Shown: in pieces, positions 1,899 to 32,232 of the stretch
How positions within the stretch are numbered: position 1 is the first letter of the stretch
Layout: the number at the start of each line of letters is the position of its first letter
From: Bryobacterales bacterium
GTDB lineage: Bacteria; Acidobacteriota; Terriglobia; Bryobacterales; Bryobacteraceae
Direction: 5' to 3'
Assembly (NCBI GenBank): GCA_025350625.1
Contig: JANXXL010000147.1
Span: forward strand, 1,275 to 65,274
DNA: 64,000 bases
The notes under the pieces: generated by a model
Told to the model about the DNA's origin: nothing
Databases searched by the model: none
What the model saw: the letters and a program-made list of their open reading frames with translations, nothing else
Made by a program: the position numbers and the translations under genes

Positions 1899-1975
1899 GG
1901 GCGCGTAGCTCAGTTGGTTAGAGCGCCTGCTTCACACGCAGGAGGTCTGGGGTTCGAGTCCCCGCGCGCCCACCA
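1899..1975 (+). tRNA. tRNA-Val (anticodon CAC), CCA encoded
   Basis: Folds by hand into a cloverleaf. Acceptor gggcgcg/cgcgccc, D-arm gctcagttggttagagc, anticodon stem cctgc/gcagg with loop ttCACac, T-arm tgggg-ttcgagt-ccccg, discriminator a, then cca. Confidence 0.9.
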
Positions 1976-1977
1976 TA
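1929..1977 (+). repeat. Direct repeat copy 1 (candidate attL core): 3' part of tRNA-Val from the anticodon stem to CCA plus 2 nt
   Basis: gcttcacacgcaggaggtctggggttcgagtccccgcgcgcccaccata. It recurs at 32163-32209 with a single 2-nt (cc) deletion. Confidence 0.85.
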
Positions 1978-2042
1978 TTTTCAATTGTTACCTATGTCGG
2001 CTCTACGCCAACAACGGGGGAGCAGATCAGTACCCAAGTCGA

Positions 2043-3027
2043 TCATCCACATAATACCTTGACGCGCAGTCTATAGTTTTCGAAGTTACGGAAGCCATAG
2101 GCCTGGCGATTGATGAGTTCCATTTTGTTATGGAAGCCTTCGGTGATGCCGTTGTTGCGGGTGAAGCGCCACATGGCGACGATCTCCTGGCTCCAGGAGG
2201 AGAGGGTTTGGCCGAGCTGCACCAGTGGGGCGAGGCCGGCTTGGCGCAACTGGTCGAGGGCACGGAGGAACCGTGGAATCAAGCGCTCACATTGGCGGCG
2301 CGTGCGATGTTTTTTCAATAGCAGATAGCAGAGCCGCTGCTTAAACCGGTAGATGAGTTCCAAAGCAGGGTATTTTCCCAGATAGGCCATGAGGCGCACC
2401 TGCTGATCGGGGCGCAGATGATGGCGGTGACGGCGCATCAACGACAGCAAACCGCGATGCTTGCTGCTAACGGGATCGATGTCGCGCCAGCAAGCCAGGA
2501 AGTGATGATTGATGATGCGGATCACGTGAAAGCGGTCGGCGACGATGCGCGCGTTGGGGAAGTGCAGGCGCACCAGCGAGCGGTAGCTGGTGGCCAGATC
2601 CATGCACACCACGCGCACTTCGGCTTTGCCTTCGAGCTTCTGAAAATACCACTCTAAGGAAAGTTCTGAGCGGCCCAGCACCACATCATAGACCTTATGA
2701 TGATGCAGATCGCAGAGCGTGGTGGCGAACCTCTTCTTGCGAGTGGCCGTTCGCCGGTAGGAAAATATGCCAAGGACGCGATTGCTCTTGTCGGCCTGGC
2801 TGTCCCTCCCCTTGGGGCTTTCCTCGGGGCCGGCACCAACGCGCTTGACTGCCGCAAGGCCTCGAACCCCCAAATGTCCCGTCCCAGGTCTGATTCCGTC
2901 TACCCGCGCCATTCGAGGGAAAGCCATTTTTCCGCGCGGGCGTGGTACGCAAACACCAGGCTTTCGAATGCAGGCCGTCGAAGTCTTCAAAATGGACCGG
3001 CTGTACAGGTGTGGAAGGGACGGCCAT
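2043..3027 (-). pseudogene. ISL3-family DDE transposase, 5' region degraded or truncated
   Basis: From about aa 113 of the 357-aa ORF (below ~2780) the match to the ISL3 catalytic domain is clear: RVLGIFSYRR..., VVCMDLATSY, IVADRFHVIRIIN, C-terminal NNGITEGFHNKMELINRQAYGFRNFENYRLRV. The upstream part is low-complexity, looks better in a different frame (FEDFDGLHSKA...), lacks the zinc-finger/HTH N-terminus, and abuts the parE-like gene at 3031. Confidence 0.8.
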
Positions 3028-3030
3028 TGG

Positions 3031-3345
3031 TTACTTGACCTCGGAACGCTTGAATTTCTGACGCGCACCGTGCCGGATGTGGAGCAGGTCCACCTGTTTC
3101 GGTTTCTCGGTGACACGGTAGATCACGCGATAGATATGCGGCTTGTTCCCATAGAACAGATTGCGGAGCCGGGTGTTCTCCGGTGTTTCGGGACATCTGT
3201 TTGGTTGCTCTTCGAGGCTCAGGATCGCTTCCTTGAGCCCCCGGTACCATTTAAGGGCGGCGTCGGAGTGTACGGCGTTGATCGCGTCGAAGACGAGTGC
3301 GAGGTCACGCTCCGCGCGGGCCGTGACATTAACGAGGTAGGCCAT
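3031..3345 (-). CDS. type II toxin, ParE/RelE superfamily
   Basis: 104 aa. MAYLVNVTARAERDL...IYRVIYRVTEKPKQVDLLHIRHGARQ is the typical ParE/RelE layout. It overlaps the stop of an upstream Phd-like antitoxin gene. Confidence 0.8.
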   Translation of the reverse strand: MAYLVNVTARAERDLALVFDAINAVHSDAALKWYRGLKEAILSLEEQPNRCPETPENTRLRNLFYGNKPHIYRVIYRVTEKPKQVDLLHIRHGARQKFKRSEVK

Positions 3346-3619
3346 GCTGCGTTTCGAATTCCGCGAAGAACTCCCGCGCCGGCCGGACCCTGCCCTCTCT
3401 TATGTCCTCCAGACCCTGGCGGATTCCCTCACCCGCGTCGGCTTGCGCGGCGATATCGAGCAGCCGTTGATAGGCCTCGGCATCCTGCACGATGGCCGCG
3501 GCCTTGCCCTTAACGGTCAGCACGACGGGGCGCTTGCTTTTCTTGAGCTGCTTCATGAACTCACCCGAACGGCGTCGGAACGTCGTCAGTGACTGGATGT
3601 CTTTAGTGATATCGAGCAT
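3329..3619 (-). CDS. type II antitoxin, Phd/YefM family
   Basis: Start taken at the internal Met (MLDITKDIQSLTTFRRRSGEFMKQLKKSKRPVVLTVKGKAAAIVQDAEAYQRLL), a typical Phd/YefM N-terminal domain. Positioned 5' of the toxin and overlapping it. Confidence 0.75.
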   Translation of the reverse strand: MLDITKDIQSLTTFRRRSGEFMKQLKKSKRPVVLTVKGKAAAIVQDAEAYQRLLDIAAQADAGEGIRQGLEDIREGRVRPAREFFAEFETQHGLPR

Positions 3620-4305
3620 AGGCCTGCTCCTATTTAAGCACCTTTTTAGGTGCTGCCGCTTCTTTGCCGGGCCAAAACTGTGTCCGAACTCCATCGTTTC
3701 ATCCGTGGGAATTGCAGTTTGAGCGAAAGCAGATTCCCCAGATTGTTGTAATTATTAGGAGTTCGTGAAAAACGACGGAGCCCGTGGAAGCCACGAGGCT
3801 CCCTTGGGCACCTGAGCTGCTATTGACATGCCGGGCGTGCTCGCGGCTCTGTACTTCATTCACGAGCGGATCTGGAGCAGGATCCAATGGGGTAGAGGAG
3901 TTGATGACGTTGCTTGAAACCGCTTTAACTAGTAGCTACCAAATCAATTCAGATCGCCAATGCAAGCGATTGGTTGGTAACAGCGCTCACCGAAGCTGGA
4001 TTGAACGTTATTGGACCGATGCTATCCAACCTTCCGCAAAAACAAGCGGCTCCAATTACGATTACGGTTGGGAAAAGCGAGTTATCCCAATTCCGACCTG
4101 TCAAGCCATTCCAAAAGTAACGGGCGCACCTCCGGTATGTTAAGCAGATTGTTCCCGGTGCAACTGCTTCTAGCTCAATGTCCCCTTCTTCTTTCGGCAG
4201 GTGACAAAGATTGCCGGCCTGTCAGCAGGTGACAAAATCGCTGGCCTACAGCACCGACTCGGCTGAGGTTGACATTCAATTGGCGATCGAGCTAAAGTCG
4301 GCGGC

Positions 4306-5352
4306 ATGCGGCGTTACGCAGGAGCTGTGCTCTTGCTTATCTGCATCGTCGAGAACTCGTGCACAGCGCCATTTAAAAACCTCACGGACGCAGCCAGCCG
4401 CGCCGCGGCCATAGTAGCGAGCAGTCAACAGGGCCCGGGCTATTGGCTCACATCCTACACCGGAAGTCCGCGCTTCAAGCAGCCCGCGCGCGAGATGAAT
4501 ACCTATCTCACAGCCGTGATGATTGATGTGCTTGGCCCCATAAGCGGGCAAGCGAGACTCGGGGATAATCTCGATCGGGCGCGCAAACATCTGACTGGTC
4601 AGATAGAAGACACCGGGTTGGTCCGCTATCACGGCAAGCCCGAAGGACCGGCCAGCCACGGCTTGGGCTGCGTGATCTCACCCGACGCAGATGATACGGC
4701 GTTGGTTTGGCGAATCGCGCCGGCAGCGGACCCGCAACTTATGGAAAAGGCGCTCGCAACGCTCGCCGAATACCGTAGCTCGGATCAGCTTTACCTTACC
4801 TGGCTGGCGCCGCGCGATAGCTTTCAGTGTATCGATCCGGGCAAGGATCCAGACCCTGCGGATGTTGCCATCCAGATGCATATTCTTATGTTTCTGGCTC
4901 AGGTGCGGCCGGCAAATGGATGGCTGCTTTGCAAGGCGCTGGACAAAGCGATCGACGACGATCGTATCTGGGTGTACTACAAGATTGCGCCTCTGATTCC
5001 GATACTCCGTCTGGTTGATTTGAAGGCTGCCGGCTGTTCGATTTCTTTACCGCCGGCAAGGCTGAAATCTAATGTTGCAGGCCAGGATATCTGGAACAGG
5101 GCCGGGCTACTGCTGTCCCGGTTGCTAGGATCCAACTCTGCCGTCCCGTCTTCGACAGAGACAAACGAGCTGCTGCAAAAGCTCGCCCAGGATGATTTCG
5201 CGGCAATCCGGCAAAACCCGCCCTTGCTGTACCACAATGATTTGACCGCTTCGACACCGAGATTCTATTGGTCCGCCGACTTCGGTTACGCCCTTTGGTT
5301 AAGACTCTACTTTGCGAACCTGCGCCTGAACCAGCCTCCGATTCTGCAGTGA
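4306..5352 (+). CDS. secreted protein with terpene-cyclase/prenyltransferase-like (alpha/alpha toroid) features, DxDDTA motif
   Basis: 348 aa. N-terminal signal-like segment MRRYAGAVLLLICIV. SPDADDTALVW resembles the DxDDTA motif of class II terpene cyclases (squalene-hopene cyclase has DVDDTAVV). Scattered GYW / W-rich repeats. Function is inferred only from these motifs. Confidence 0.5.
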   Translation: MRRYAGAVLLLICIVENSCTAPFKNLTDAASRAAAIVASSQQGPGYWLTSYTGSPRFKQPAREMNTYLTAVMIDVLGPISGQARLGDNLDRARKHLTGQIEDTGLVRYHGKPEGPASHGLGCVISPDADDTALVWRIAPAADPQLMEKALATLAEYRSSDQLYLTWLAPRDSFQCIDPGKDPDPADVAIQMHILMFLAQVRPANGWLLCKALDKAIDDDRIWVYYKIAPLIPILRLVDLKAAGCSISLPPARLKSNVAGQDIWNRAGLLLSRLLGSNSAVPSSTETNELLQKLAQDDFAAIRQNPPLLYHNDLTASTPRFYWSADFGYALWLRLYFANLRLNQPPILQ

Positions 5353-5774
5353 TTTTCAAATACAATTGGCGTAGAGCCGAGACCTTTGGGGATCATGAGC
5401 GGCGCGTCAACAACAGCCGCTTCTCGAGAAACAGATGGTCGCCGGCCGCGACTTCTTCGGGCGGCGCCGCCGTATTGCTGCGGCGGGAAAACAGGCTGAC
5501 TGCCGCGCCTGCGTTGGGGCGCCCTTGGGGATCTGCTATGGAGCTTTGCCCCCCATCGCCACCCAGGCAGTTCTCCTGACACATAGTGGCCCCGGTTCCC
5601 TTTTCACACACCCGAGAACAACGGAATAGTCTACGAGTACCACAATGGTTTTCCGCGGTCACCGAAATCCTGCCGCCAGTCGCCAGAGGCGCGTTCAAGG
5701 ATTGGCCGAACTTGGCCGAAGAGCAATCCACGGCGGCGCACCACTAGCGCTGGCTGAAGAGAGGGTCTGCGACG

Positions 5775-6749
5775 GTGGATGCGGTCAACAGTGGCACCCT
5801 GACGGTGGCCGCCCCTCGATGGCGAGGATTGGGCCTGATTTCGTGTGTACGTTGGGATGAAGTTCTGCTCCAGCAAGGGACGCCACTTTTTGGCGCCTTG
5901 TTTTCGATCGGCACTTTGACGTCCGCGAAGGCTTGCGCCGTCGCTCTGCTGATCGCGGGCGGTGTTTTTCTGGTGGCCCACATCTTCCTTCTGAATGACT
6001 GCTGTGGAGCCGATGAGGACGTTAAAGTTCCTAACCGTTGCGCGAGTGTGTTTTTGTCGCGGGGCTTCCTGCGCGCCGACGTCGGCTACCTCTGTGTGGT
6101 CTTGCTGGTACTGGCATTTCTGCTGTTAGCGCCGCTTGGCCTGCGCACGCTCCTGATTGCCGCAGGAATCGCCTTTGTAAGCGCGCTTTATTCGGGCCCT
6201 TTACTTTGCGGCAAAGGAATTCCGGTGCTGAGTTCCGCGCTCCACATCGTCGGGGGCATCCTCCACTTTCTGCTTGGGTACTCGCTGTTTTGCTCCCTTG
6301 ATGCAAGAGGTCTTGAAACCGGCGCTTTTTTTGCCCTTTCGTTTGCGGCAGGGCATCTGACCCATGAAGCGCGCGACCGGGAAGGTGACTATGGGTGTGG
6401 GATTCAGACCAATGCAGTTAAATTCGGCGCGCGCCGCGGGTTCTGCGCCGGCCTGACCCTGTTTACCATCGCCTATGCTCTGCTGGTTATATTGGCATGG
6501 CGTGGCTTGGTGCCGCGGCTCCTATTTCTCACGGGCGCCATCTATCCCCTGCATCTGTACTTTTCAATGCGGACGCTTCGAGATGGCCTGACTTTTGAGA
6601 ACATCCGGCGCCTGCAGGCGCACTACCGCGTACTGTATTCCGTAGTGCGGCTCTTCTTGCCATCCTCGGCGCGGTCGTCAAATACACTCTGGTCCCGGTT
6701 TTTGTCGGGGCATCGCTTTACCTGTTTTGGCGGGATCGTTCGCGGTTGA
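5775..6749 (+). CDS. UbiA-family polyprenyl (phospho)transferase; start and C-terminus uncertain
   Basis: About 8 TM helices. First motif LNDCCGADED is a divergent NDxxDxxxD. The second motif DREGDYGCGIQTNAVKFG fits DxxxDxxxGxxTxxxxxG exactly. The last ~30 aa are Arg/Ser-rich and look out of frame (see findings). Confidence 0.65.
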   Translation: MDAVNSGTLTVAAPRWRGLGLISCVRWDEVLLQQGTPLFGALFSIGTLTSAKACAVALLIAGGVFLVAHIFLLNDCCGADEDVKVPNRCASVFLSRGFLRADVGYLCVVLLVLAFLLLAPLGLRTLLIAAGIAFVSALYSGPLLCGKGIPVLSSALHIVGGILHFLLGYSLFCSLDARGLETGAFFALSFAAGHLTHEARDREGDYGCGIQTNAVKFGARRGFCAGLTLFTIAYALLVILAWRGLVPRLLFLTGAIYPLHLYFSMRTLRDGLTFENIRRLQAHYRVLYSVVRLFLPSSARSSNTLWSRFLSGHRFTCFGGIVRG

Positions 6750-7723
6750 AAAGTCTGGGCATTCTTTGGGGACTGGGATTGCTGGTTTTGCTGCTCTTCC
6801 CGGGCCTCTTATATTTGCTCGTGAACAGCGCCTATGGGAAACGCCTTGCGCTTCCCGTCGAGCCGGGAGCATTTTCAAAGGCCGGTTTTGCAATGAATCT
6901 TCTTAATTACACGGCAGCGGGAGCTGCGGGATGGGACACCATACTAACCAAGGCCGACGCTAGGCTGAATCCTCAATTCCACATGCATTTTCCGGTTGCA
7001 ATGGTGATGCTGGTCCCGTCCTTCGTGTTGCTCGTCATTTGGCTTCCGCGCTTCCGCCGGTGGGAACGCGGCCGCACAAGATCCTTCATCATCCTGCTGG
7101 GGATACTGACTGCCGGGTTGTGGGCGATGCTTGCTGCCTCCACCTGGCTTGGGGGCCTGCAGTGGGATTTTAGTGAGGAGAGCCGATTCTACAAGCCCAT
7201 CGTCCTGCTGTGGCTTTTGCCCTGTTCACTTTCCCTCGACAGGTTGTCCTCGAAAGACCTGCGAAAATCGGTGGCCTTCTATTCTGTTGCGCTTCCAATC
7301 GCTCTGGTTGCAATCGGGGAAGTACGACTTGGATTTCTCCGCCAACCGTGGCTGGCTTTGCCCGACAGCGGAATCGCCTGGATTCGGCCTTACGACAACA
7401 ACCACGCGCGCTTTCTGTCGGAATTCGCTTCGCTGCGCTCACACAAGCCGGATCTGCTGATTGGGCCAGACCCCAGGACTATGGTGGAACTCGGTGTGCC
7501 CATCGCATACTGGTGGATCCTGCAGCAACGCAGCGCCGGCTACTGGACCAGCCAAGATCTTGAGATTTGGGCGCTCGTCGAGCCACAGCAGGTGCCATCG
7601 CTGCTGGCCGGTGTCAAAGGCGTTTGCGCCGCCGAGCACGTCGCGGTACCGGCTGGCTACCCCTTTGTCTTTTACATACTGAAGCTGCAGGCTCCGGGCA
7701 AAGCCGCGGACAATTGTCAGTGA
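6746..7723 (+). CDS. polytopic membrane protein of unknown function, with a soluble C-terminal domain
   Basis: 325 aa from a TTG start. Several hydrophobic helices. The same frame stays open and hydrophobic for 49 codons upstream (to the stop at 6596-6598) without a canonical start codon. Confidence 0.5.
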   Translation: MKSLGILWGLGLLVLLLFPGLLYLLVNSAYGKRLALPVEPGAFSKAGFAMNLLNYTAAGAAGWDTILTKADARLNPQFHMHFPVAMVMLVPSFVLLVIWLPRFRRWERGRTRSFIILLGILTAGLWAMLAASTWLGGLQWDFSEESRFYKPIVLLWLLPCSLSLDRLSSKDLRKSVAFYSVALPIALVAIGEVRLGFLRQPWLALPDSGIAWIRPYDNNHARFLSEFASLRSHKPDLLIGPDPRTMVELGVPIAYWWILQQRSAGYWTSQDLEIWALVEPQQVPSLLAGVKGVCAAEHVAVPAGYPFVFYILKLQAPGKAADNCQ

Positions 7724-8593
7724 TTCTGCGGGCAAAACCAGGCTGCCGAGGCACCCCAGTTTGTAAGGCGATGTGAAGATGGTATCCGATCATCTCGGAC
7801 ATTCGGCGAAATTCAACTATAGCGGAATACACGCGGTCGGCCATTGCGCAGATCGTTGACGTGAGACGTGAAGAGAAATCCTTCGTTTGACGTTTCGACG
7901 AATACGGAGCGGGAAGAAATGGAAATGCGGGCGAAACTTATGAGCAGTGTAAGGCTTCCGCATTAGGCGCTCCAGATAGTTTCGACATCATCAATCGGCC
8001 ATTCCCCAGAGGCCCTAGGAAGACGCGAGGGCCACAGAGCAGGCGATTCGCGCGGTACCCATCAATGGTTTCTTCGAAAGCACTTCAGCTACGCACGCTT
8101 CCGCAAGCTCGACACCTGCGTGATCGCGCACCTGTGCCAGGAAATCCTGGGACAGTAGCCCCTTAGGGAGGAATTGCCGGATTAATCTCAAGGTGGATCA
8201 GGTGTTTGTTTACGTGCGCCGATACAAGTTAAAGTCGCAGCCGTACCAACTCCATTGGAGATAAATGAGCCGGGAAAGGCACCAGAGTGAAGTAAGAACT
8301 CGCATCGGCACCTTCCCACAGGGTGCCGCCATGCGCGAGCTACAGTCGCCACTCGAGATGTAAGTCGCTTGCGCCGAATTGGGACGCCCCTCAAACTCTA
8401 GATTTTCGTCTTCTGCGAACGATAAGGGTTCTTGCGGATGGCAGATGTCGAGGAGTTGGCTGACCGATGCACGCCATCTCGAGCCATCCAGAAGCGTTTA
8501 GAGTCGCCCCTAGCCTTGAAAGGTGGATTTGGGACTCAAGGGGCGAAGCATGTTCGGGCAGATTTTCCTTCGTATTGTTAACCGAAGCTCACT

Positions 8594-9544
8594 ATGAAAC
8601 TATTTAGGTTTTCGATGGCCGTGTGGATGCTTTCGCTAGGGCAGGTTTCCCTGCCGGCACAGAACGCTGACGATTATCGTCTCGGTCCAGGCGATCAGAT
8701 CAATGTGCACGTAAGAAACTTGGAGGAGATACCGGACAAGCCCTACGCCGTCGATGAGGGCGGTTTTGTATACCTTCCGGTGACGGGCCAGGTGCAGGTT
8801 GGGGGCATGACGGCAGCCGAGGTGGTAGTCTTGCTTAGCCAAGTCTTGAAGCGTTACCTGGTGGAGCCGGACGTAACCGTCTCGATAACTGCCTTCCACA
8901 GCCAGCCGATCACCATACTAGGCGCGGTGGCCATCCCGGGGACGCGGCAACTGGAAGGCCACAAGACACTATTTGAAATCATTTCCCTGGTAGGAGGCTT
9001 GCGCCCGGATGCGGGATACAAGATCAATATAACGCGCCAGTTGGCGCAGGGGCGAATTCCCTTGCCGGACGCAGCCGACGACCCGACCGGTAAGTTCAGC
9101 ATCGCTTCGGTAACCATTAAGAGCGTGCTCGACGCTTCCGATCCCAACGCAAACATCGAGATCAAGCCCGAAGATGTAATTTCGGTGCCACATGGCGAAC
9201 TGATTTACGTGATTGGGGCGGTAAGAAAGCCGGGGGGTTTTGTCTTGACCGATCATGAATCGCTCAGCACCCTGCAGTTGATGGCTCTGGCGGAAGGATT
9301 GGACCGCTTTGCGGCGCCCCGCAAGGCCCGGTTGCTGCGAGCGGTGGGTCATTCGTCCACGGCGCGCGTCGAGAGGCCGCTCGATCTCAAGCGAATCGTG
9401 GACGGAAAAGACGAAGATATCGAGCTCCGCGCCAACGACGTGCTGATCATCCCCAGTAGCGTACGCAAGGCGGCGACGGTGCGAAGCATGGAAGCGGTAA
9501 TCGGCCTGGGAACCTCGGCCGCTACCGTCGGTATTTACCGCTAG
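8594..9544 (+). CDS. polysaccharide export outer-membrane/periplasmic protein (Wza-like; Poly_export + SLBB)
   Basis: 316 aa. Signal peptide MKLFRFSMAVWMLSLGQVSLPAQ, YRLGPGDQINVHV motif, SLBB-like repeats (ITILGAVAIPG, IYVIGAVRKPG). Confidence 0.85.
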   Translation: MKLFRFSMAVWMLSLGQVSLPAQNADDYRLGPGDQINVHVRNLEEIPDKPYAVDEGGFVYLPVTGQVQVGGMTAAEVVVLLSQVLKRYLVEPDVTVSITAFHSQPITILGAVAIPGTRQLEGHKTLFEIISLVGGLRPDAGYKINITRQLAQGRIPLPDAADDPTGKFSIASVTIKSVLDASDPNANIEIKPEDVISVPHGELIYVIGAVRKPGGFVLTDHESLSTLQLMALAEGLDRFAAPRKARLLRAVGHSSTARVERPLDLKRIVDGKDEDIELRANDVLIIPSSVRKAATVRSMEAVIGLGTSAATVGIYR

Positions 9545-9552
9545 CCGAACCC

Positions 9553-15284: not shown

Positions 15285-15379
15285 CTCGCGGCCGTAGGGC
15301 GAAGCCCCGGCCGGGATTGGAGCGGGTGTTCTCTGAGACGGCCCTCGCCGGGCAGGTGGTAGCCGCGGAATACGAAGAC

Positions 15380-18439: not shown

Positions 18440-18452
18440 CGGGCGGACTCTT

Positions 18453-20350: not shown

Positions 20351-20380
20351 TTTCGCCCGCGATTGCCATTCAGGACTGTC

Positions 20381-23427: not shown

Positions 23428-23459
23428 ATAGCGTCTGCCCGTTTAAATCCTTACCGCCT

Positions 23460-24521: not shown

Positions 24522-24625
24522 AAACTGTCCTGAAATCCTTTCTCGGCACCCTGCCGGCCAATTTTGGGGGGAGCAGCAGTGCTGACTTCTTTTGGCCGCG
24601 GCAAACGGCCTTAGAACTCTTCTCC

Positions 24626-25627
24626 ATGAATAACTCCAACCGCCAGTCCGTAACCGTCGTGGTCCCCACCTTCAGTCGCGGGGAGGCGCTGCGCACCACT
24701 TTAAACGCCCTCTTGGCAAGCACCAGCGACGGGCTTGAATTTGTAGAAATCTTAGTCGTGGATGATGGATCGCCCCTGCCGGCCGCTCCGCTCGTGAACT
24801 CCTTAGAAGCGGCATCACCCTTCTCCCTCCGCTGCATCCGGCAGCCGAATCGGGGCCCGGGAGCGGCGCGCAATACCGGCTTTCGGGAAGCCCAGGGGCG
24901 CATCGTCATCTTCGTCGACGACGATATCATCGCCCCCCCGAACCTCATACAACAACACCTTCGCGCGCATGCCTCTCTTCCGCAAAGCGTCATCTGCGGC
25001 CTCACTACTCTGATCCAGCCCACCCCGCCAACACCGCTCTTCCGTTTCATTAGTTCTTTATCCGGAGACGAGCCGCTTCTCGCTTCGGAACAGGAGTTCC
25101 TCGAAACCGACCAGCCGAACAGTCAGCATATTTCTGTCGAACGAGGAATGTTCGACGCAGCCTCTGCCATTTACCACGACGATCTTTTTACGCCGGCCGC
25201 GGAAGAGTTCGGGTTGGCGTATCGCTTGCGACAGGCGGGAATCAGGCTGGTATTCGCTCTGCGCATTACCGCCCGGCACGATCAGCCACTCGACCTCGCA
25301 GGCGTCTGCCGGCAACAGTACAAACATGCGCTGGGCGCGGCTGAAGTCGTTAAGAAGTACCCTGCCGCCAGGAGTCTCCCGGCGCTCGAACGTATCCTGC
25401 AAGCCAATCTGGAGAAAACGCAGGGTCTCACACTAAAGACTTTGAAGCGCGGCGTGCTGCGCTGGCTCGCGAGCGCTCCGTTGCGTAAGGGCGGTCTCCG
25501 GACCATCGAAATGTTGCAAGACTTTGTTCCTCTGCCAAGCGCGATCCTGCCACCCGTTTATCGGGCTATTGTCTCCGCGCACTATCACGCGGGTCTGAGG
25601 GACGGCTCGCGGCGGGAGTGGAGATGA
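24626..25627 (+). CDS. glycosyltransferase family 2
   Basis: Start at MNNSNRQSVTVVVPTFSRGEALRTTLNALL. ILVVDDGS, GPGAARNTG, FVDDD motifs. Confidence 0.8.
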   Translation: MNNSNRQSVTVVVPTFSRGEALRTTLNALLASTSDGLEFVEILVVDDGSPLPAAPLVNSLEAASPFSLRCIRQPNRGPGAARNTGFREAQGRIVIFVDDDIIAPPNLIQQHLRAHASLPQSVICGLTTLIQPTPPTPLFRFISSLSGDEPLLASEQEFLETDQPNSQHISVERGMFDAASAIYHDDLFTPAAEEFGLAYRLRQAGIRLVFALRITARHDQPLDLAGVCRQQYKHALGAAEVVKKYPAARSLPALERILQANLEKTQGLTLKTLKRGVLRWLASAPLRKGGLRTIEMLQDFVPLPSAILPPVYRAIVSAHYHAGLRDGSRREWR

Positions 25628-25687
25628 CGACGGCACCGGCACTCGAACAGCCGCGAACCCAGCCAACCGCGGCTTACCCGGGGTGCG

Positions 25688-25732
25688 AGTGATCGGTGGG
25701 CAAGTGATCGGTGGACAAGTGATCGGTGGGCG
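25688..25732. repeat. 15-bp tandem repeat x3 (agtgatcggtggRcN) in the intergenic gap upstream of the flippase gene
   Basis: agtgatcggtgggca / agtgatcggtggaca / agtgatcggtgggcg, read directly from the sequence. Confidence 0.9.
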
Positions 25733-25748
25733 ACGGGTTCGGACATAG

Positions 25749-27374
25749 ATGCGGCCCAGCGTCAGCTACGTTTCGATGAAAACCCGGCTCGCAGCTTTTC
25801 GCGGCCGCCGGCCGACACAGCCCACGACCAGTGGGCATCGCCTGGCGTCGAATATCTTCTACCAGCTTGGGAGCCAGTCCCTGTTGTTGGTGCTCTCGTT
25901 TGTATTCTCACCTTACGTCGTCCATCGTCTGGGTGTCGAGCTCTACGGGCTGCTTATCCTGGCGGGCATCACCACAAACTACTTTGCCATCGTCGAACTG
26001 GGACTGGGGCAAGCTAGCGTAAAGTTCCTGGCGGATGCCTACGCACGCCGGGACTGGACCGGGCTCCGGCTCATGCTGTGGACCTCGGTTCTGACGTACT
26101 TTGCTCTCAGCGCAGTGGGGGCGTTGGGATTGGTGGCGCTCACGCCGTGGCTGACGCACCTTCTGCGAGTGCCGCAAGCTTCAATCATTCTCACTAAGCA
26201 GGTTTTAAATCTCTGCGCCCTGGGATTGGCGGTATCGATGATGGGCAGTATCTTCTCTTCCGTGCCGCGCGCGCTGGAGAGGTTCGATATCGTGAGTTAC
26301 CTGAGCGTCCCCGCCGGCGTGGGTCAGCTCGTCCTGAACCTGCTGTTGCTCTATTTCGGGTATTCGATACGCGCCCTGGTAGTCGGCGGCGTAGTGATCC
26401 AGACCCTGGTACTGGTGGCTTACATTGGTGTCGCTCGTCACTTGCTTCACCCGTTGGGACGCCCCATATTTGACCGGCCGGCGCTGCGGCAGCTCTTGGG
26501 TTTCGGCGGCCTGGTCTCGGTTTCGCAAGTGGTTGTGCCGGTCCTTGCGCATCTGGAGAAATTTATCATCGGGCGCGTCCTGACATTGAGTGCAGTGGCG
26601 TTCTATAGCGTGCCCTACAATCTGGTGTGGGCACTTACCTATATTCCAGGCAGCGTTTCCGGCGTATTGTTTCCGGCTTTCTCGCGCCTGACTGTCGAGG
26701 GTGACCATGGCCGCAGATCTTATTTGCTGGTGCGCGGCACGAAATATGTGCTGGCCGCTATTCTGCCCGTAGCCGTAGTTCTGTCGATATTCAGCCACAG
26801 ATTTCTGGCTGCATGGATGGGGCCGCAGTTCGCGCTGCGCAGCACGGAGGTTCTCCAGGTGCTGGCATTTGCGGTTGTGATCAACAGCGTGTCAGATCCT
26901 GCCTACCAGGCGCTGCAAGCCATGGGGAGGCCGGGTATCCCGGCGGCGTTTAATGTTCTCGAAGTTTGCATCCACATTCCGCTGTGCTTTGTTTTGATTG
27001 GTCGTTATGGAGTGCTGGGCGGCGCAATCGCTTGGGCGGTTCGAGTCAGCCTGAACTCTCTGCTATTGACGGTAGCCTTTACGCGGGTGACAGGGATGTC
27101 CTATCGAAGCTTCGTGTCGAGCGCGCTATTGCGCCCGGCCGTAGCCGCTGCCGCGTTGCTGCCTCTGGTCTGCGCAGCCGCCTACTGGTTTCCTGACCTA
27201 AGCCGCGTCGCGACTATTCTTGGGATGATGGCAGTCGGCCTCACCTATTGGACGGGCGTTTTCGCGCTCGCACTGGATCAGGAAGACCGCCATCATTTCA
27301 GAATGTTCACCGGCCGCTGGATTCATTGGCCGGGGCTGATGCCGGCGGCCCCGCCCCCGGTGAAGATCACTTGA
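25749..27374 (+). CDS. Wzx-like oligosaccharide flippase (MOP/polysaccharide biosynthesis protein family)
   Basis: 541 aa, about 14 hydrophobic helices with the typical MOP layout. Located inside the polysaccharide locus. An alternative start at MKTRLAAF is possible. Confidence 0.8.
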   Translation: MRPSVSYVSMKTRLAAFRGRRPTQPTTSGHRLASNIFYQLGSQSLLLVLSFVFSPYVVHRLGVELYGLLILAGITTNYFAIVELGLGQASVKFLADAYARRDWTGLRLMLWTSVLTYFALSAVGALGLVALTPWLTHLLRVPQASIILTKQVLNLCALGLAVSMMGSIFSSVPRALERFDIVSYLSVPAGVGQLVLNLLLLYFGYSIRALVVGGVVIQTLVLVAYIGVARHLLHPLGRPIFDRPALRQLLGFGGLVSVSQVVVPVLAHLEKFIIGRVLTLSAVAFYSVPYNLVWALTYIPGSVSGVLFPAFSRLTVEGDHGRRSYLLVRGTKYVLAAILPVAVVLSIFSHRFLAAWMGPQFALRSTEVLQVLAFAVVINSVSDPAYQALQAMGRPGIPAAFNVLEVCIHIPLCFVLIGRYGVLGGAIAWAVRVSLNSLLLTVAFTRVTGMSYRSFVSSALLRPAVAAAALLPLVCAAAYWFPDLSRVATILGMMAVGLTYWTGVFALALDQEDRHHFRMFTGRWIHWPGLMPAAPPPVKIT

Positions 27375-28159
27375 CCGGCAGCCAGCCCGCCAACCGCCGC
27401 CGCAGCCGCGACGCCCGTGCCGATCGCCACTGGTTTCACCCAACCAGCCACCGGCCTGCATGCCTCGCCCGGCAGGTCCGTCAGCACGGCTTCGCGGATC
27501 AATCGCGTGGCGCCAGCGACTGGCGGTGTTGCGGTGTCCACTACACCCGTGATCTTCACCCGGCGATTAAGATGACTCGCGATATCCGGGCCTTTTACTT
27601 CAACCAGCATCTTAGTGATTTGATCCCGAATCAGAAAATGAGACCTGGCCTCTCCGAGGCATCCGGATACCACCGAGACCTCCCGCGTTTGTCCTTCCGG
27701 AATCTGCGCGACTGGCGCTCCCGCGGCAGTCTGGGCGGCCGCCATTCCCGAGACCGCAGTCACGCTAATGGTCATTTCGTCCAGGCGCCATACCCGGAAA
27801 TTCGAGGCCGCGGCAAGGGAGTCCATGCGCAGTCCATTCGCTTCCACTGCGAAGCCGTCTGCCGGCCAAACCTGCGCCCTGCCCTTCTTGAGAACCAGGC
27901 GATCCGAAAAGATCTGTCCCTGCGCTTCCGGCGCGAGATCGAAGCGAGTGCGATTGGTGAGGCTCACATGCGTGGGACTCTTGAGATCGTCAACCGTGGT
28001 GCCGCTCATCAACGATCCGTTGCCGCGGGCGCGCGACCCGTCAATCTGAAAGTCGCCCGGCGAAACCACCAAGCCTATTGCCGGGTTGGAAATATCAGAC
28101 GCAGCAGCCACTCCGATCCACAACATTGCAGCATAGCCGAATACAACTTTTGAATTCAT
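27323..28159 (-). CDS. secreted/anchored protein of unknown function
   Basis: 278 aa. N-terminal signal-like helix, beta-rich body, C-terminal Ala/Gly-rich hydrophobic segment. Preferred over the Arg-rich antisense ORF 27248-28153. Confidence 0.5.
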   Translation of the reverse strand: MNSKVVFGYAAMLWIGVAAASDISNPAIGLVVSPGDFQIDGSRARGNGSLMSGTTVDDLKSPTHVSLTNRTRFDLAPEAQGQIFSDRLVLKKGRAQVWPADGFAVEANGLRMDSLAAASNFRVWRLDEMTISVTAVSGMAAAQTAAGAPVAQIPEGQTREVSVVSGCLGEARSHFLIRDQITKMLVEVKGPDIASHLNRRVKITGVVDTATPPVAGATRLIREAVLTDLPGEACRPVAGWVKPVAIGTGVAAAAAVGGLAAGQVIFTGGGAAGISPGQ

Positions 28160-28214
28160 GAAAGATCACCTGCCTTGAGTCTACGGCCAACGCCGCACAT
28201 TTCCACCATAAATA

Positions 28215-29459
28215 ATGCCTCATCCGCGAAATCAAGCGATCTATTTTGTTGTACTCCCGAGCCTTATTCTGCTTAGTGCCGCCGGGGTATATATTTCGCT
28301 GCGAATGGCGGCGGCGTCCTACAACTCGCTTACTCCGAGCCTTGCTGAACGCAATGCCGCAGCGTCGCAGTTTCCAGGGAGCGCCGAATATCAAGTGCGG
28401 CTGGCTGACCTGCGAAGGGCGTCCGGCCTGTCATTTACAAGCAATCTTGCAGATGCGGTAAGAGACAGCCCGCGCGATAGCCGCTTGTGGATTCAACTTG
28501 GGTTGGCAGAGGAGCAAGATGGCGATTTAAAGCGTGCGCAAGCCAGCTTGCTGCGCGCCGGAACACTAGGGAAGGATTACGACACACTTTGGACGCTGAC
28601 AAATTTTTACTTCCGTAGAGCAAATCGCGAGCAGACGGTATCGTGGGCCTGTGCGGTCCTATCTATCCCTGGAGTAGACGGCGGACCCGTCTTCTCCCTA
28701 CTGAGCAACTTCCCGGCAAGACCGGATTGCATTCTGCACAGCGATTTTAGCGGGCCGCGAAATGTGCGCCGGGACTACTTGCAATGGGTGATCTCCAAAG
28801 CGGATTTGGATGCAGCGGATCGAGTCGCAGACATCCTGATTCGGGAGCCGGACCCGGAGTCGACGCCGTTGCTTCTCGATTATTGCGACCGCCTGTTGCT
28901 TGCGCGGAGAACCGGGGCGGCAGTCCAGCTATGGAACGCGCTGGCGGGAAAAGGGCGAGTTTCAGCACCGGTTGCCGCCACGGGCGAACTGATTGACGGC
29001 GATCTGAAACTTGCGGATCCTCCGCACGGCTTCGCGTGGCGAATGCCTCCGATTACGGGCGTAGAACTGACATCGCTTAACCCGGGTTTGCAAATTTCGC
29101 TTTCCGGCACGCAGCCCGATAGATGCGAACTACTCTCGCAGTGGGTACTGATTGGCTCCACTTCCGCGCACATGCTGCGCTTCCGTTCGGTCGTGTCGGG
29201 ATTAGGCGCCGGCTCCGGAGTGCACTGGCGAGTGACGACTCCCGACGGCGTTAATTTTTTGGACCCCGCGCGCCTTGAACCCGGTGCCGACATTTACGAT
29301 GGGAGCCCCGCCGAATCCTTACTTCCCTTACTCGGGCCCCCCCATGGCAGCCTGATTCGTGGCGGGCTCATTCACGTAGCGCTGGTCTATGACCGTGTGC
29401 CCGGAGCTGTCCCGGCCCGCGGTTGGATTCGACTGGAAAAAATATGGTTCACCAAATAA
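28215..29459 (+). CDS. membrane-anchored protein with TPR-like N-terminal part and beta-rich C-terminal domain, unknown function
   Basis: 414 aa. One N-terminal TM helix (IYFVVLPSLILLSAAGVYISL), then helical repeats (RLWIQLGLAEEQDGDLKRAQASLLRA). Its end overlaps the start of the ligase-like gene. Confidence 0.5.
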   Translation: MPHPRNQAIYFVVLPSLILLSAAGVYISLRMAAASYNSLTPSLAERNAAASQFPGSAEYQVRLADLRRASGLSFTSNLADAVRDSPRDSRLWIQLGLAEEQDGDLKRAQASLLRAGTLGKDYDTLWTLTNFYFRRANREQTVSWACAVLSIPGVDGGPVFSLLSNFPARPDCILHSDFSGPRNVRRDYLQWVISKADLDAADRVADILIREPDPESTPLLLDYCDRLLLARRTGAAVQLWNALAGKGRVSAPVAATGELIDGDLKLADPPHGFAWRMPPITGVELTSLNPGLQISLSGTQPDRCELLSQWVLIGSTSAHMLRFRSVVSGLGAGSGVHWRVTTPDGVNFLDPARLEPGADIYDGSPAESLLPLLGPPHGSLIRGGLIHVALVYDRVPGAVPARGWIRLEKIWFTK

Positions 29460-30763
29460 CCGGCTGGGCACGAGCGATCCTGACCAACGTCCCGCCGCTC
29501 AGTGCGTCTCTGTTACTCTTCGCCGCCCTGCTGTTCTCGCTAGGTATGGCCTGGAACACTGGCGGCTGGCCCGTCGCGCTTGCCGAGGCCATGATTTTTG
29601 CACTCACCGGCATTACCGCGGCGCACGCGCTTTTCGCCCGCGGGATTCACTTTCCATGGACTGCTACGGTGCTCTTCGCCGCTTGCATCTGGATCGCTGC
29701 GCAGTTGTATGCCGGGCGGTCTGTGTACCGGTTTGGCACCTTACAGTCGTTGCTGATATTCCTCTCTGTCGCGGGCGCGTTCTGGAGCATTCCGCAGCTA
29801 TTTGAAAGTGATAGGGCCGTGCGCGTGATTCGTAAGCTGCTGGTTGCGATTGGATCCGCTACGGCCGCCTTTTCCATCCTTTATCTCCTCACCAGCAATG
29901 GGCGCGTCTACTGGGTGATCGACACTCTCGATTCCTGGCGGCCGATGGGACCTTTCTTAAATGCCAACCACAATGCGGTGTTCATGGAACTGCTGCTGCC
30001 GCTCGCGCTTTGGGAGGCGTTCCACGACGCACGCCTGGGCTACCTGTACGGAGCCGCGGCGGTCTTGATGTATAGCAGCGTGATTTTCGCCGCTTCCCGC
30101 GCTGGCATTATTCTTGCCACTTTGGAGATCGGGGCTCTGGTGCTCTGCTGGCTGGTGCAGACGCGCTTTTCCCGGCGCACCACCCTGGTGGGTTGCGCGC
30201 TGCTCGCGAGCTTAGCTGGCGGAGCGTTTCTCTCCGATTGGCACACCCTTCTGCGGCGTTTCGAAACCAAAGATATTTTCCAGCAGCGTAGGGAACTGCT
30301 AGAGTCAACCGCACTCATGATCCGCGAGCATCCCTTGATGGGTTCCGGCCTGGGGACTTGGGCCATCGCGTATCCAAGATTTGCTGTATTCGAGCCCGGC
30401 CTTGCGGTTTACCACGCACACGACGACTGGGCCGAATGGACGGCGGAGGGCGGCGTTCCTTTCGTGGCGCTGTTGGGTGCCGTCGTACTTCGCTCGATAT
30501 TACTGACTCGCAGATTTGCCTGGGGGATAGGCGTCGCCTCCGCGGCCGCTCATGCCTTTGTGGACTTTCCGTTTCACGTGTATGCGGATCTTTTATGCTT
30601 CTTCCTGATTGCCGCCCTGATGGAAGCCTCCGCCACAAATCAGCAGCTTGTGTACCAATCTCCGGCGACCGGTATCCGACCTGCTACATCGAGAGCGCAT
30701 GTACTGGCACTGACACCGGACGATCCTGCCGCGAGCGCTCGAAAAGAATGGTTTTACGAATGA
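29423..30763 (+). CDS. O-antigen ligase/Wzy_C-domain membrane protein
   Basis: 446 aa, at least 10 TM helices. Large loop with HPLMGSGLGTWAIAYPRF...YHAHDDWAEWTAEGG, typical of the Wzy_C/O-antigen ligase family. Start may be 29441. Confidence 0.8.
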   Translation: MDSTGKNMVHQITGWARAILTNVPPLSASLLLFAALLFSLGMAWNTGGWPVALAEAMIFALTGITAAHALFARGIHFPWTATVLFAACIWIAAQLYAGRSVYRFGTLQSLLIFLSVAGAFWSIPQLFESDRAVRVIRKLLVAIGSATAAFSILYLLTSNGRVYWVIDTLDSWRPMGPFLNANHNAVFMELLLPLALWEAFHDARLGYLYGAAAVLMYSSVIFAASRAGIILATLEIGALVLCWLVQTRFSRRTTLVGCALLASLAGGAFLSDWHTLLRRFETKDIFQQRRELLESTALMIREHPLMGSGLGTWAIAYPRFAVFEPGLAVYHAHDDWAEWTAEGGVPFVALLGAVVLRSILLTRRFAWGIGVASAAAHAFVDFPFHVYADLLCFFLIAALMEASATNQQLVYQSPATGIRPATSRAHVLALTPDDPAASARKEWFYE

Positions 30764-31691
30764 TGCCTTCCAAATTGGTGGTGGGCCTCCAGCCGGTGTG
30801 CGCTTCGATCCGGCAGATGCAGGGGACGCGCCGCCGCATGTCCTCGAAGCCGCCTTCCGGGTAGGCTTCTTCATACGGAACCAGGATGATGCGCGAAGAG
30901 GAATCCGCAGCCTGCTTGACCCGCTCTGCCAACTCGAAGATCGACACCTCTTCGTCGCTGCCTATATTAAAGATCTTACCGGTGACATTCGAACCGCGCA
31001 GCAGGCGCATCACGGCGCCGATGCAATCATCTATATAGGTAAAATTGCGCCTTTGGGCCCCATCGCCAAAAACCCGGATCGGCTGATTGGCCAAGGCGGC
31101 ACGCACAAACGCAGGAAGTACCATGCCATATCGCGCCGACTGCCGCGGTCCCGCGATATTGAAAAAGCGGGTAATGGTTACCGGCAGGTCGTGACTTGCA
31201 TGGTAGGCAAGCCCCATGAATTCATCCAACTTTTTCGAGGTGGCGTAGGACCAACGCTCGATCGAAGACGAACCCAGTATTGAATCGGCATCTTCGCACA
31301 GAGAGTTCGCATCATTCTTGCCATAAGTTTCCGACGTACTTGCCAGCAGAATTGGCCGGCGGAATTCGGCGCAGGCGCTAAGCACACTTTCGGTTCCCTC
31401 CACATTGGTTTTGAGCGATGCCAGCGGCCGTTCCAAAATGGTGTGTACACCCACCGCGGCCGCTAGATGAACCACCCGGTCGCAAATCGAGACTTGAGCG
31501 CGTATCAATTCGCGGTTTAGAATCGAGTCCTGTATGAACCGCAATCGTGGGTGATCCGCCAGCGCCGTCAAGTTGTCCAGCGATCCGGTACTGAGATCGT
31601 CCACTACCGTCACCGAGTGGCCGTCGGCGACCAGGTTTTCCGTAAGATGGGACCCAATGAACCCCGCGCCGCCGGTGATCAGGAAGTGCAT
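30684..31691 (-). CDS. NAD-dependent epimerase/dehydratase (extended SDR, UDP-sugar type)
   Basis: MHFLITGGAGFIGSHL (GxxGxxG); catalytic YATSK (YxxxK); 335 aa. Confidence 0.9.
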   Translation of the reverse strand: MHFLITGGAGFIGSHLTENLVADGHSVTVVDDLSTGSLDNLTALADHPRLRFIQDSILNRELIRAQVSICDRVVHLAAAVGVHTILERPLASLKTNVEGTESVLSACAEFRRPILLASTSETYGKNDANSLCEDADSILGSSSIERWSYATSKKLDEFMGLAYHASHDLPVTITRFFNIAGPRQSARYGMVLPAFVRAALANQPIRVFGDGAQRRNFTYIDDCIGAVMRLLRGSNVTGKIFNIGSDEEVSIFELAERVKQAADSSSRIILVPYEEAYPEGGFEDMRRRVPCICRIEAHTGWRPTTNLEGIIRKTILFERSRQDRPVSVPVHALSM

Positions 31692-31849
31692 ACTTGCGTT
31701 TCCTTAGATCCGCGCGTGAGGCCGGGAAACTCAGGCCGAAAGATATGCCATTGAGGGGGTTTCACCTTGCACTCATCGGTACGCGCTGCGAGAGTATGAG
31801 CTTCCCTTTCTTCGGTGTTTTCCTGCAAAATATCTCTTCAGTTTCGTGT

Positions 31850-32130
31850 ATGGCGTGCTGGCCCTGACACACGTGACAGCGCGTCAAGCCGACGCTCTCC
31901 GCTGCACGGAGGACCAAATCCTCGCAATGGTTGTAAAGCGGTTTGTTGCGAATGAGGCCCTGGTGACATACCTAGGATTAAATCGCGAGCAGATATTCGG
32001 TGGGGATGACGCCCGCCCAGCCCTATTCTTGATAGCCGCCGTCGTAGCTGATTCCCCAAGTCTTCACGTTTGCGCAGTTCACAAAATCTGCGCGTCGACA
32101 CGCAGCCGTCTTGCAAGAAGGACAGGATAG
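31850..32130 (-). pseudogene. remnant of a Zn-dependent alcohol dehydrogenase (MDR)-like gene, N-terminally cut and with in-frame stops
   Basis: Own minus-strand translation: LSCPSCKTAACRRADFVNCANVKTWGISYDGGYQE*GWAGVIPTEYLLAI*. The Cys cluster followed by DGGYxE resembles the structural-zinc loop region of MDR dehydrogenases. Stop at complement of 32023-32025. Weak call. Confidence 0.3.
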
Positions 32131-32162
32131 ACCGCTAGGAGATCAAAGAAGCAACACCCCTC

Positions 32163-32209
32163 GCTTCACACGCAGGAGGTCTGGGGTTCGAGTCCGCGCG
32201 CCCACCATA
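32163..32209 (+). repeat. Direct repeat copy 2 (candidate attR): orphan 3' fragment of tRNA-Val
   Basis: gcttcacacgcaggaggtctggggttcgagtccgcgcgcccaccata. Upstream sequence (…gaagcaacacccctc) has no matching tRNA 5' half, so it is not a second tRNA gene. Confidence 0.85.
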
Positions 32210-32232
32210 CGTCCAGTGCCGCCCACAATTTG

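Follow-up and report, generated by a model that had tools for sequence, protein, structure and literature searches.

The segment examined here raises the question of whether a complete polysaccharide locus, lying between a tRNA gene and a displaced copy of part of that gene, arrived as the cargo of one mobile element. The window, the whole 64-kb stretch of DNA analyzed (contig JANXXL010000147.1 of a Bryobacterales bacterium, positions 1,275 to 65,274), contains a tRNA-Val(CAC) gene near its left end and an orphan 3′ copy of that gene further right, with 30.2 kb enclosed between them, and the initial annotation took this to be one 30-kb island with the polysaccharide genes as its cargo. The geometry of a pair of attachment (att) sites and the failure to detect a recombinase in the interval stood, but because a relative shares an apparently co-diverged copy of the locus, the composition is native and no empty site was found, the locus is not demonstrable cargo of one insertion event. 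The explanation that we prefer, and to which we give about even credence, is an island of composite make-up that is bounded by att sites, has no integrase and occupies an integration hot spot, like the cis-mobilizable elements (CIMEs) of streptococci; in this island the polysaccharide locus is an old resident.

ARAGORN and Rfam (RF00005, 71.3 bits) recognize a single tRNA in the window, the intact tRNA-Val(CAC) at 1899-1975 on the + strand, which together with the att core makes up the attL side. The first repeat copy, the att core (1929-1977, +), takes in the final 2 nt of the 5′ strand of the anticodon stem and everything from there to 2 nt beyond the CCA, so that identity begins at tRNA position 31, in the anticodon stem-loop, and the second copy is the orphan 47-nt piece at 32163-32209 (+), found by alignment and repeat search. 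The two copies are in direct orientation and 47 of 49 positions align, the sole difference being a 2-nt CC deletion (GAGTCCCCGCGCG in one copy vs GAGTCCGCGCG in the other); the orphan has no substitutions, and the deletion lies on the 3′ strand of the T-stem, beyond the exact block of 33 nt with which the repeat opens. This block is unique to the two places in the window, matches in 0/100 dinucleotide-preserving shuffles, and makes the pair the top direct repeat of the 64 kb. The 30 nt before the second copy show no resemblance in alignment to the 5′ half of a tRNA, and neither ARAGORN nor Rfam calls a tRNA there. The initial annotation had described both the 49-nt repeat with its 2-nt deletion and the orphan status of the second copy, and both descriptions hold. 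No third or degenerate att copy was found by mismatch search or Smith-Waterman alignment in the interval, the right flank or the corresponding regions of relatives; in the interval and right flank, the best Smith-Waterman scores (13-16) equal the shuffle background.

Both ends of the orphan copy fall on landmarks of integrases that use tRNA genes. In Islander, anticodon-centred attP sites are the commonest class, the 3′-fragment class is also a majority and the 5′-fragment class is rare; here, an intact tRNA gene and a directly oriented displaced fragment lie on the same replicon, and the fragment begins at a known crossover sublocation, the anticodon stem-loop. Viral contigs of IMG/VR, whose hosts are unrelated, contain 33 orphan tRNA-Val(CAC) fragments that begin no more than 3 nt from the same position. 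None of the viral contigs searched contained the exact att core found here, and a degenerate att pattern matched unrelated phages only. One 37-kb IMG/VR contig, 3300045988_009904, carries the tRNA-Val(CAC) 3′ block near both ends (L228, 13771-13802, and L245, 317-348; L-numbers are our labels for the sequence loci compared), and this contig is a provirus of an unrelated host bounded by an att repeat of the same type.

The same tRNA gene is used by integrases within the family. Tyrosine integrases lie directly beside the xseB-linked tRNA-Val in L019 (7509-8780; Phage_integrase, 2.2e-16) and L024 (1043-2209; 1.6e-17), with their C-termini facing the tRNA, and an 83% identical homologue of the L024 integrase is present at the xseB-linked tRNA-Val of L046; the integrases of these relatives lie 70-130 nt from the tRNA. 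In L018, a 32-codon C-terminal relic of an L019-type integrase (9425-9520) is located 60 nt from tRNA-Val, with a sigma-70 gene after it, and captures the decay of an integrase at this very site. The cargo of the integrase-bearing relatives varies, with a hydrolase in one and Cas3-like genes in another, and does not consist of polysaccharide genes. A motif like TTCAA..ACTTAC, seen 3′ of the tRNA both here and in several relatives, is too short to assign the native flank and accompanies sites with an integrase as well as sites without one. In L014, a 42-nt 5′ fragment of tRNA-Val (positions 1-42; 8590-8631) lies by xseB with the intact tRNA (4102-4178) 4.4 kb on, a mirror-image geometry of the 5′-fragment class, and no integrase-sized open reading frame (ORF) is present between the two.

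Synteny with relatives breaks at both repeat copies, as seen in about 20 left-flank relatives and 8 close right-flank relatives. Past the tRNA, nothing in the roughly 20 left-flank relatives matches the window. At the other end, orthologues of the GMC oxidoreductase that begins the right flank, 88-90% identical in amino acid sequence and with conserved upstream synteny, occur in L081-L087, and homology stops about 10 nt past their stop codon; the stop codon of the GMC gene in the window is 23 nt from the scar. Because of the landmark boundaries, the use of tRNA-Val by integrases in the family and the coincidence with synteny breakpoints, the orphan copy can be taken as an att site, and because of its att-like start and the tyrosine integrases and integrase relic at the same tRNA-Val in relatives, it is most likely an attR-type scar. 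The att-pair geometry of integration into the 3′ half of a tRNA gene, as originally proposed, is thus borne out by the boundaries, the viral fragments and the relatives' integrases.

The same observations bear on whether the orphan is instead a decayed duplicate of tRNA-Val or the junction of a segmental duplication. Fragments of tRNA genes are described as common in prokaryotic genomes (PMC9897764), and a duplicate would also suit the lack of a recombinase. Both boundaries, at the anticodon stem-loop and at CCA+2, would then have to match integrase landmarks by chance; the window holds no upstream similarity to a tRNA 5′ half, no relative has two tRNA-Val genes here, and a decayed gene would show substitutions rather than a clean truncation. 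We consider this origin very improbable.

An assembly artefact, a chimeric metagenomic join at the 33-nt repeat, was weighed in the same way, as the source is a metagenome-assembled genome (MAG) and the end of one short-k Logan contig falls exactly 30 nt inside the repeat. Contig JAYSNN010000027 of the independent assembly GCA_043723765.1 matches the window at 99.99% identity and also contains the orphan copy (L161/L258), and the junction of epimerase gene, scar and GMC gene is identical in the window and this public NCBI contig. In addition, the sequence to either side of the orphan is unique and the 2-nt deletion is peculiar to it, so that it exists however the contigs are joined, while the intact tRNA as assembled keeps a proper T-stem. 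An artefact of this kind is scarcely credible.

If the interval had entered by one integration, relatives that never received it would be expected to have an empty site, with xseB-tRNA-Val directly followed by the GMC gene. This arrangement was looked for among relatives of both flanks, 80 loci from an IspA search of genome contigs for the left flank and 80 loci from a GMC search of metagenomes for the right. The nearest genomes are MAGs of Bryobacteraceae and Bryobacterales (Acidobacteriota), with IspA up to 91% identical, and all relatives in this search are at least 7% diverged from the genome of the window, so that an empty site at strain level may have escaped it. The ispA-xseB flank is conserved and syntenic in 80 Bryobacterales genomes, and tRNA-Val adjoins xseB in 19 of these 80 and also in L165. 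An xseB-tRNA-Val-GMC arrangement was found in none of the 80 genome and 80 metagenome loci nor in the contigs encoding an identical GMC protein; a look-up of exact proteins gave nothing for xseB and, for GMC, only the occupied arrangement. The empty site that the initial annotation had suggested seeking in related genomes did not turn up among these loci. In the closest of the GMC loci, an antitoxin gene and a second GMC gene, not a tRNA, follow downstream, and no relative has a second tRNA-Val gene at the position of the orphan. In L001, the closest of the left-flank relatives, a direct repeat of about 75 nt lies in tandem upstream of xseB (about 700-870), and the 0.9 kb available contains no tRNA-Val; none lies within 9.7 kb of xseB in L002 and L003. 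In L081-L088 and L151, the gene downstream of GMC encodes a Phd-like antitoxin and is preceded by TGTACA palindromes; the GMC paralogue after it is 72% identical to the first, and both genes are absent from the window.

Composition likewise gives no sign that the polysaccharide locus is foreign. Its GC content (8594-31691) is 0.593 vs 0.587-0.602 in the flanks, and its tetranucleotide profile correlates with that of the right flank at r 0.95-0.97, so that the deviant composition that Islander treats as supportive is lacking for this part. The tRNA-proximal 1976-8593 is mildly deviant (GC 0.569; tetranucleotide r 0.87-0.89). The comparison with the flanks that had been proposed as a check on the island therefore shows the polysaccharide part to be the same as its surroundings, with a slight deviation in 1976-8593 only.

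A relative with the locus at the same tRNA was found in contig ERZ25039595_51519 (L165 and L164), where tlyA-ispA-xseB-tRNA-Val is followed by 1.8 kb with a histidine-kinase gene and then by the locus from Wza to the epimerase. The left flank of L165 is the second closest of all to that of the window, at 78.8% nucleotide identity vs 79.8% for the best. This contig has no integrase, and no tRNA fragment occurs in the 9 kb after the locus. Positions 8371-31800 of the window align at 76-81% nucleotide identity to L165/L164, L163 and L257 and at 92.6% to L256, and homology of the locus ends at 31800-31862 in all relatives compared, leaving 1976-8370 and 31801-32209 as the only genome-specific segments. 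Third-position identity between the window and L165 is 0.50-0.62 for tlyA, ispA and xseB and 0.53-0.66 for the genes of the locus, and because these values are alike, the locus and the core flank appear to have been diverging for about the same time. L256, the closest relative at the right end (third positions 0.85-0.88), parts from the window at 31862. Past that point, L256 (1-170) contains the N-terminus of an IS6/IS26-like transposase (FKGRHFDRQIIILCVSWY), after which the contig ends.

The surroundings of the locus in other relatives are less constant. A more distant relative, L073 (CAVROL010000010.1), has a different Wzy/Wza/Wzc locus directly behind the same tRNA-Val, and in L166 (Wza 77%) the locus has a different left neighbour. 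The right neighbours differ from case to case, with flagellar genes in L164, a fucosidase in L163 (ERZ25039543 contig_49967), a pyrroloquinoline quinone dehydrogenase in L257, histidine kinases and an IS21 relic in the P0006 contig, and IS6 in L256. Four independent metagenome contigs (L167-L170) with Wzy homologues of 76-78% identity all end inside or right after the epimerase gene and give no information on the right flank; their shared stopping point suggests that, in natural populations, strains differ or repeats occur at the right end of this locus.

In contrast to the apparent age of the locus, the scar looks fresh. If neutral and dating back to the split from L165, a 47-mer would be expected to have gathered about 10 substitutions on this branch, with a probability of none of roughly 1e-5, and 0 were seen. 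The orphan also carries T49, like the tRNA of its own genome, where L165, L005, L010, L011 and L017 have C49. Because it has no substitutions against about 10 expected, the scar is, judged by this sequence comparison, far younger than the linkage between tRNA and locus, and by the same comparison the polysaccharide locus is older than the scar that bounds it. A young distal junction together with an old tRNA-locus linkage excludes one simple ancient insertion.

A single recent insertion would reconcile some of this. By such an account, a polysaccharide island from a Bryobacteraceae donor would have entered an empty tRNA-Val/GMC site and then lost its integrase to an insertion sequence (IS), and L165 would hold, in the same att site, an older member of this island family that was acquired independently and has lost its attR. 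A recent integration would suit the geometry and the pristine scar, integrases do target tRNA-Val in relatives, a donor from the same family would account for the native-like composition, and the right flank differs in every sampled relative, and the left flank in L166, as with a mobile cassette. The equal divergence of locus and core from L165 would then be a coincidence, however; L165 holds the locus at the same tRNA without scar or integrase; the integrase-bearing islands of relatives hold other cargo; the empty site was not found; and the relatives of the GMC locus have the antitoxin gene and second GMC gene where a tRNA would be predicted. Such an insertion requires that donor and host be equally diverged from L165, that the L165 lineage have lost its attR and that tRNA-Val once adjoined GMC, an arrangement seen in none of the genomes sampled. 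We judge it unlikely, if still a serious contender.

A different combination is that the locus is plain chromosomal DNA that was never mobile, and that the scar was left by a separate small element at its far end, nearly all of which has been deleted. This element would have integrated into a second tRNA-Val gene or a secondary site, or could have been an unrecombined attP that came in by a different route, with 31801-32162 and the att core as the remains. The co-divergence of the locus with the core and its native composition agree with this, as do the unique 0.3-0.36 kb directly before the scar and the behaviour of the right end of the locus as a rearrangement hot spot (IS6 in L256, the IS21 relic in P0006, varied flanks). 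Yet in L163, L164, L256 and L257 the locus ends on the right without a tRNA or tRNA fragment, and no relative was found with either there. A true attR would be expected to show the direct orientation, the T49 match and the intact core gene 23 nt away, and an extra tRNA-Val gene or an unusual route of integration would be needed, neither of which has left a trace. This possibility, too, seems to us rather unlikely.

The interval itself was searched for the enzyme that an att pair implies. No integrase, resolvase or Xis was detected by Pfam in the 27 main ORFs of the interval, and no recombinase by Pfam in the translated gaps (six frames of 7650-8650 and 31600-32240; minus frames of 1976-3130), with the gaps at 3650-4400 and 5300-5850 lying outside this frame-by-frame scan. 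Searches by tblastn with the two integrase types of relatives (those of L019 and L024) found no recombinase in the interval, and none was found among small ORFs by PHROGs or by Pfam at lax thresholds. A weak tblastn integrase match at 40850-41206 (E 0.029) was rejected, as it lies within a CheB/CheR gene outside the interval. The initial annotation had found neither recombinase nor excisionase here, and this is borne out by the Pfam searches of ORFs and gap frames, tblastn and PHROGs, and the interval lacks the tyrosine integrase that Islander looks for inside an island. It matches instead what is described for CIMEs, in that attL and attR are kept while integrase, excisionase and transfer genes have been lost.

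The place next to the tRNA where an integrase would normally sit is occupied, as noted initially, by an IS, although what had been described as a remnant is one end of a 3.4-kb unit bounded by inverted repeats. This ISL3-type unit (1997-5380) has a perfect 15-bp inverted repeat, TCGGCTCTACGCCAA, at 1997-2011 and 5366-5380, and its end is about 22 nt from tRNA-Val. At that end, an ORF at 2043-3116 (-) encodes the C-terminal DDE part of an ISL3 transposase (domain about 2043-2744; DDE_Tnp_ISL3, 3e-52, profile positions 9-240 only), and Pfam found no N-terminal ISL3 domain in any minus frame. No target-site duplication is present, the flanking 8-mers being different. With a partial transposase, no target duplication and inverted repeats 3.4 kb apart around passenger genes, this is not a complete ISL3 element but a remnant or rearranged unit; it may represent one IS that was rearranged and took up passenger genes, or else the ends of two separate IS copies. 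The passengers are ParE (3031-3345, -; Pfam 4e-10), Phd/YefM (3329-3694, -; Pfam 1.8e-09) and an unknown ORF of 348 amino acids (4306-5352, +). Loss of the integrase through an IS-associated deletion is plausible, and a deletion adjacent to the IS fits because the IS-bracketed unit on the tRNA side lacks a target duplication and the N-terminus of the transposase.

Starting from four observations (the repeat with its att-like boundaries, the use of this tRNA by relatives' integrases, the lack of a recombinase, and a locus that is shared and has co-diverged), the history of our preferred composite island can be reconstructed as follows. A tyrosine integrase crossing over in the anticodon loop of tRNA-Val(CAC) would have joined a circular element to the tRNA gene, regenerating the tRNA at one end (attL) and leaving the displaced 3′ part at the other. 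In what would be a long-standing island or hot-spot region, later integrase-bearing elements may have docked at the att sites by accretion, and this accretion could have renewed the distal site and left a short element arm at 31801-32162. The integrase module would then have been lost, probably by deletion beside the IS at the tRNA-proximal end. The segment would accordingly be composite, with an old 23.4-kb locus set between a genome-specific 6.4-kb tRNA-proximal part and a 0.36-kb distal part with the scar. We infer this history of accretion and renewal from the arrangement of old and young parts.

Several points count against it. The ancestral adjacency of tRNA-Val and GMC, which any integration model implies, is unconfirmed in the sequences compared, and the renewal by accretion has left no direct trace, the third att copy being absent. 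The window shows no detectable relic of an integrase, whose loss we therefore infer. The age argument assumes that the scar has evolved neutrally and has not been homogenized by gene conversion, and a single relative has the left flank of the locus at the tRNA, with L166 holding the locus elsewhere. Finally, the sequence is a MAG, and the right junction alone is confirmed by the second assembly.

A further possibility, which we regard as improbable, is that the segment is a still-mobilizable integrase-less cassette, excised and re-inserted in trans by the tRNA-Val integrases of Bryobacteraceae. This would explain the well-preserved distal att site and the different right neighbour in each relative; if true, whole Wzx/Wzy loci would be swapped among soil Acidobacteria by site-specific recombination.

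The composite island that we favor resembles several known systems without matching any one of them throughout. With Islander islands it shares an intact tRNA gene with a direct 3′ fragment from the anticodon stem-loop, a length of about 30 kb, an interior with accessory genes, a toxin-antitoxin pair and an IS, and a tRNA that tyrosine integrases use in relatives; it differs in having no integrase, for which the Islander filter would reject it, and no empty site, and in that most of its length has no composition signal and its content has co-diverged with that of a relative lacking the fragment. In streptococcal CIMEs, attL and attR persist in an element that has otherwise decayed, and new elements accrete by integrating there. 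The region fits this structural definition on its sequence features, being att-flanked and devoid of recombinase and transfer genes, with integrase-bearing elements at the same site in the family, and accretion at the att sites would explain a young distal site beside old content. The host here is instead an acidobacterium and the target the anticodon loop of a tRNA gene, no cognate integrase is seen in the window, and the 2-nt deletion may have disabled the distal site.

The initial annotation held that a complete surface-polysaccharide assembly line would be unusual cargo for a tRNA island, a view that does not survive comparison with SPI-7 of Salmonella Typhi, in which the viaB Vi locus lies in a 134-kb mosaic island between pheU and a partial pheU copy. 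SPI-7 excises precisely and has a deviant G+C content, and it keeps an integrase and conjugation-type genes. The likeness consists in a complete locus for surface-polysaccharide biosynthesis and export between a tRNA gene and a partial direct copy, in a mosaic setting; the region described here differs in lacking recombinase and transfer genes and in the native look of its polysaccharide locus. Loci for O-antigen and capsule are themselves hot spots at fixed chromosomal positions, exchanged between conserved flanks. The same position behind xseB-tRNA-Val in L165, the different locus there in L073 and the swapping of glycosyltransferase cassettes between relatives recall such hot spots, whereas the right flank here is conserved in no relative and an att-type scar bounds the locus.

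Taken in this setting, the segment is an ordinary decayed genomic island with no new mechanism. It marks the xseB-adjacent tRNA-Val(CAC) as a working integration hot spot in almost unstudied, uncultured soil Acidobacteria and exemplifies how an island decays into a segment that is anchored in place and has no integrase. From a tRNA fragment one may well conclude that an integrase acted, but not that the DNA enclosed arrived jointly or recently, and it was the comparison with relatives that told an old resident polysaccharide locus from its young ends. Tools that need an integrase, such as Islander, or a composition signal would miss the region.

The 23.4-kb locus (8371-31800, +), delimited by Pfam, the gene calls of the public assembly and the extent common to relatives, has the clustered Wza, Wzc, initiating transferase, glycosyltransferases, Wzx and Wzy of a Wzx/Wzy-dependent pathway. 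It opens on the + strand with Wza (8594-9544; Poly_export/SLBB) and Wzc (9553-11904; Wzz, GNVR and AAA_31). Six glycosyltransferases, four GT4 and two GT2, are encoded at 11879-13072, 13069-14100, 14004-15284, 16419-17675, 20381-21553 and 24518-25627 (all +), among which lie genes for a membrane protein (15239-16615, +), a hexapeptide transferase (17672-18439, +), a split asnB-like protein (18381-20350, +; Pfam), the PF00953 initiating transferase (21553-23427, +) and an acyltransferase (23460-24521, +). These are followed by Wzx (25749-27374, +; Polysacc_synt), unknown ORFs at 27323-28159 (-) and 28215-29459 (+), Wzy (29444-30763, +; Wzy_C) and a NAD-dependent epimerase/dehydratase of 335 amino acids (30684-31691, -; Pfam). 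In the asnB-like amidotransferase, the GATase part (18381-19253) and the Asn_synthase part (19151-20350) are encoded by separate, overlapping ORFs, while its orthologue in L164 (307-2205) is a single 632-amino-acid gene; the split is a frameshift or a sequencing error. Compared with L165/L164, the stretches 11906-13064 and 24471-25835 differ, with a GT4 gene replaced by an acyltransferase gene and a GT2 region left unaligned, and the interior of the locus, by this alignment, shows cassette-like glycosyltransferase variation.

The gene inventory given initially was confirmed for ispA, xseB, GMC, the ISL3 remnant, ParE/Phd, UbiA and the series from Wza and Wzc to Wzx and Wzy, but not for its "dehydrogenase remnant", which is the intact epimerase, equal in length in all relatives and conserved as the last gene of the locus. 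Between this gene and the orphan fragment, 0.47 kb is free of genes. The part of it at 31801-32162, a genome-specific spacer between locus and scar, has no homology in relatives past 31800 (31862 for L256) and contains no recognizable gene, its six frames being negative by Pfam and its small ORFs negative by Pfam and PHROGs; it is a candidate remnant of an element-side (P) arm. On the tRNA-proximal side, between the ISL3-type unit and the locus, lie a UbiA-family prenyltransferase gene (5775-6749, +; Pfam UbiA, 9.5e-16) and beside it an unknown ORF of 325 amino acids (6746-7723, +), together restricted to this genome, with no homology to 5775-7723 in L165 or the other loci; a 0.87-kb gap separates this module from the polysaccharide locus.

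Outside the repeats, core genes are present on both sides by Pfam and gene calls, as was originally stated. To the left are ispA (623-1507, -; Pfam polyprenyl_synt, 2.3e-60) and xseB (1511-1771, -; Pfam Exonuc_VII_S, 1.7e-19). To the right, the GMC oxidoreductase gene (32233-33984, -) is followed by genes for SBP, a response regulator and histidine kinase, STAS, CheB/CheR, TamB, TamA and Dus, and the flank up to 57 kb encodes ordinary core functions that also include BrkB and an M28 peptidase. A second island in this flank, considered for the GC content of 0.55 at 38-55 kb, was rejected, since that stretch encodes TamA/TamB, Dus, the peptidase and chemotaxis genes. Compared with JAYSNN010000027, the window has an extra T in a T-run at 39277, which splits a CheB/CheR-PAS-kinase gene of 1150 amino acids into 38392-39309 and 39161-42061, and two substitutions, at 35632 and 35647.

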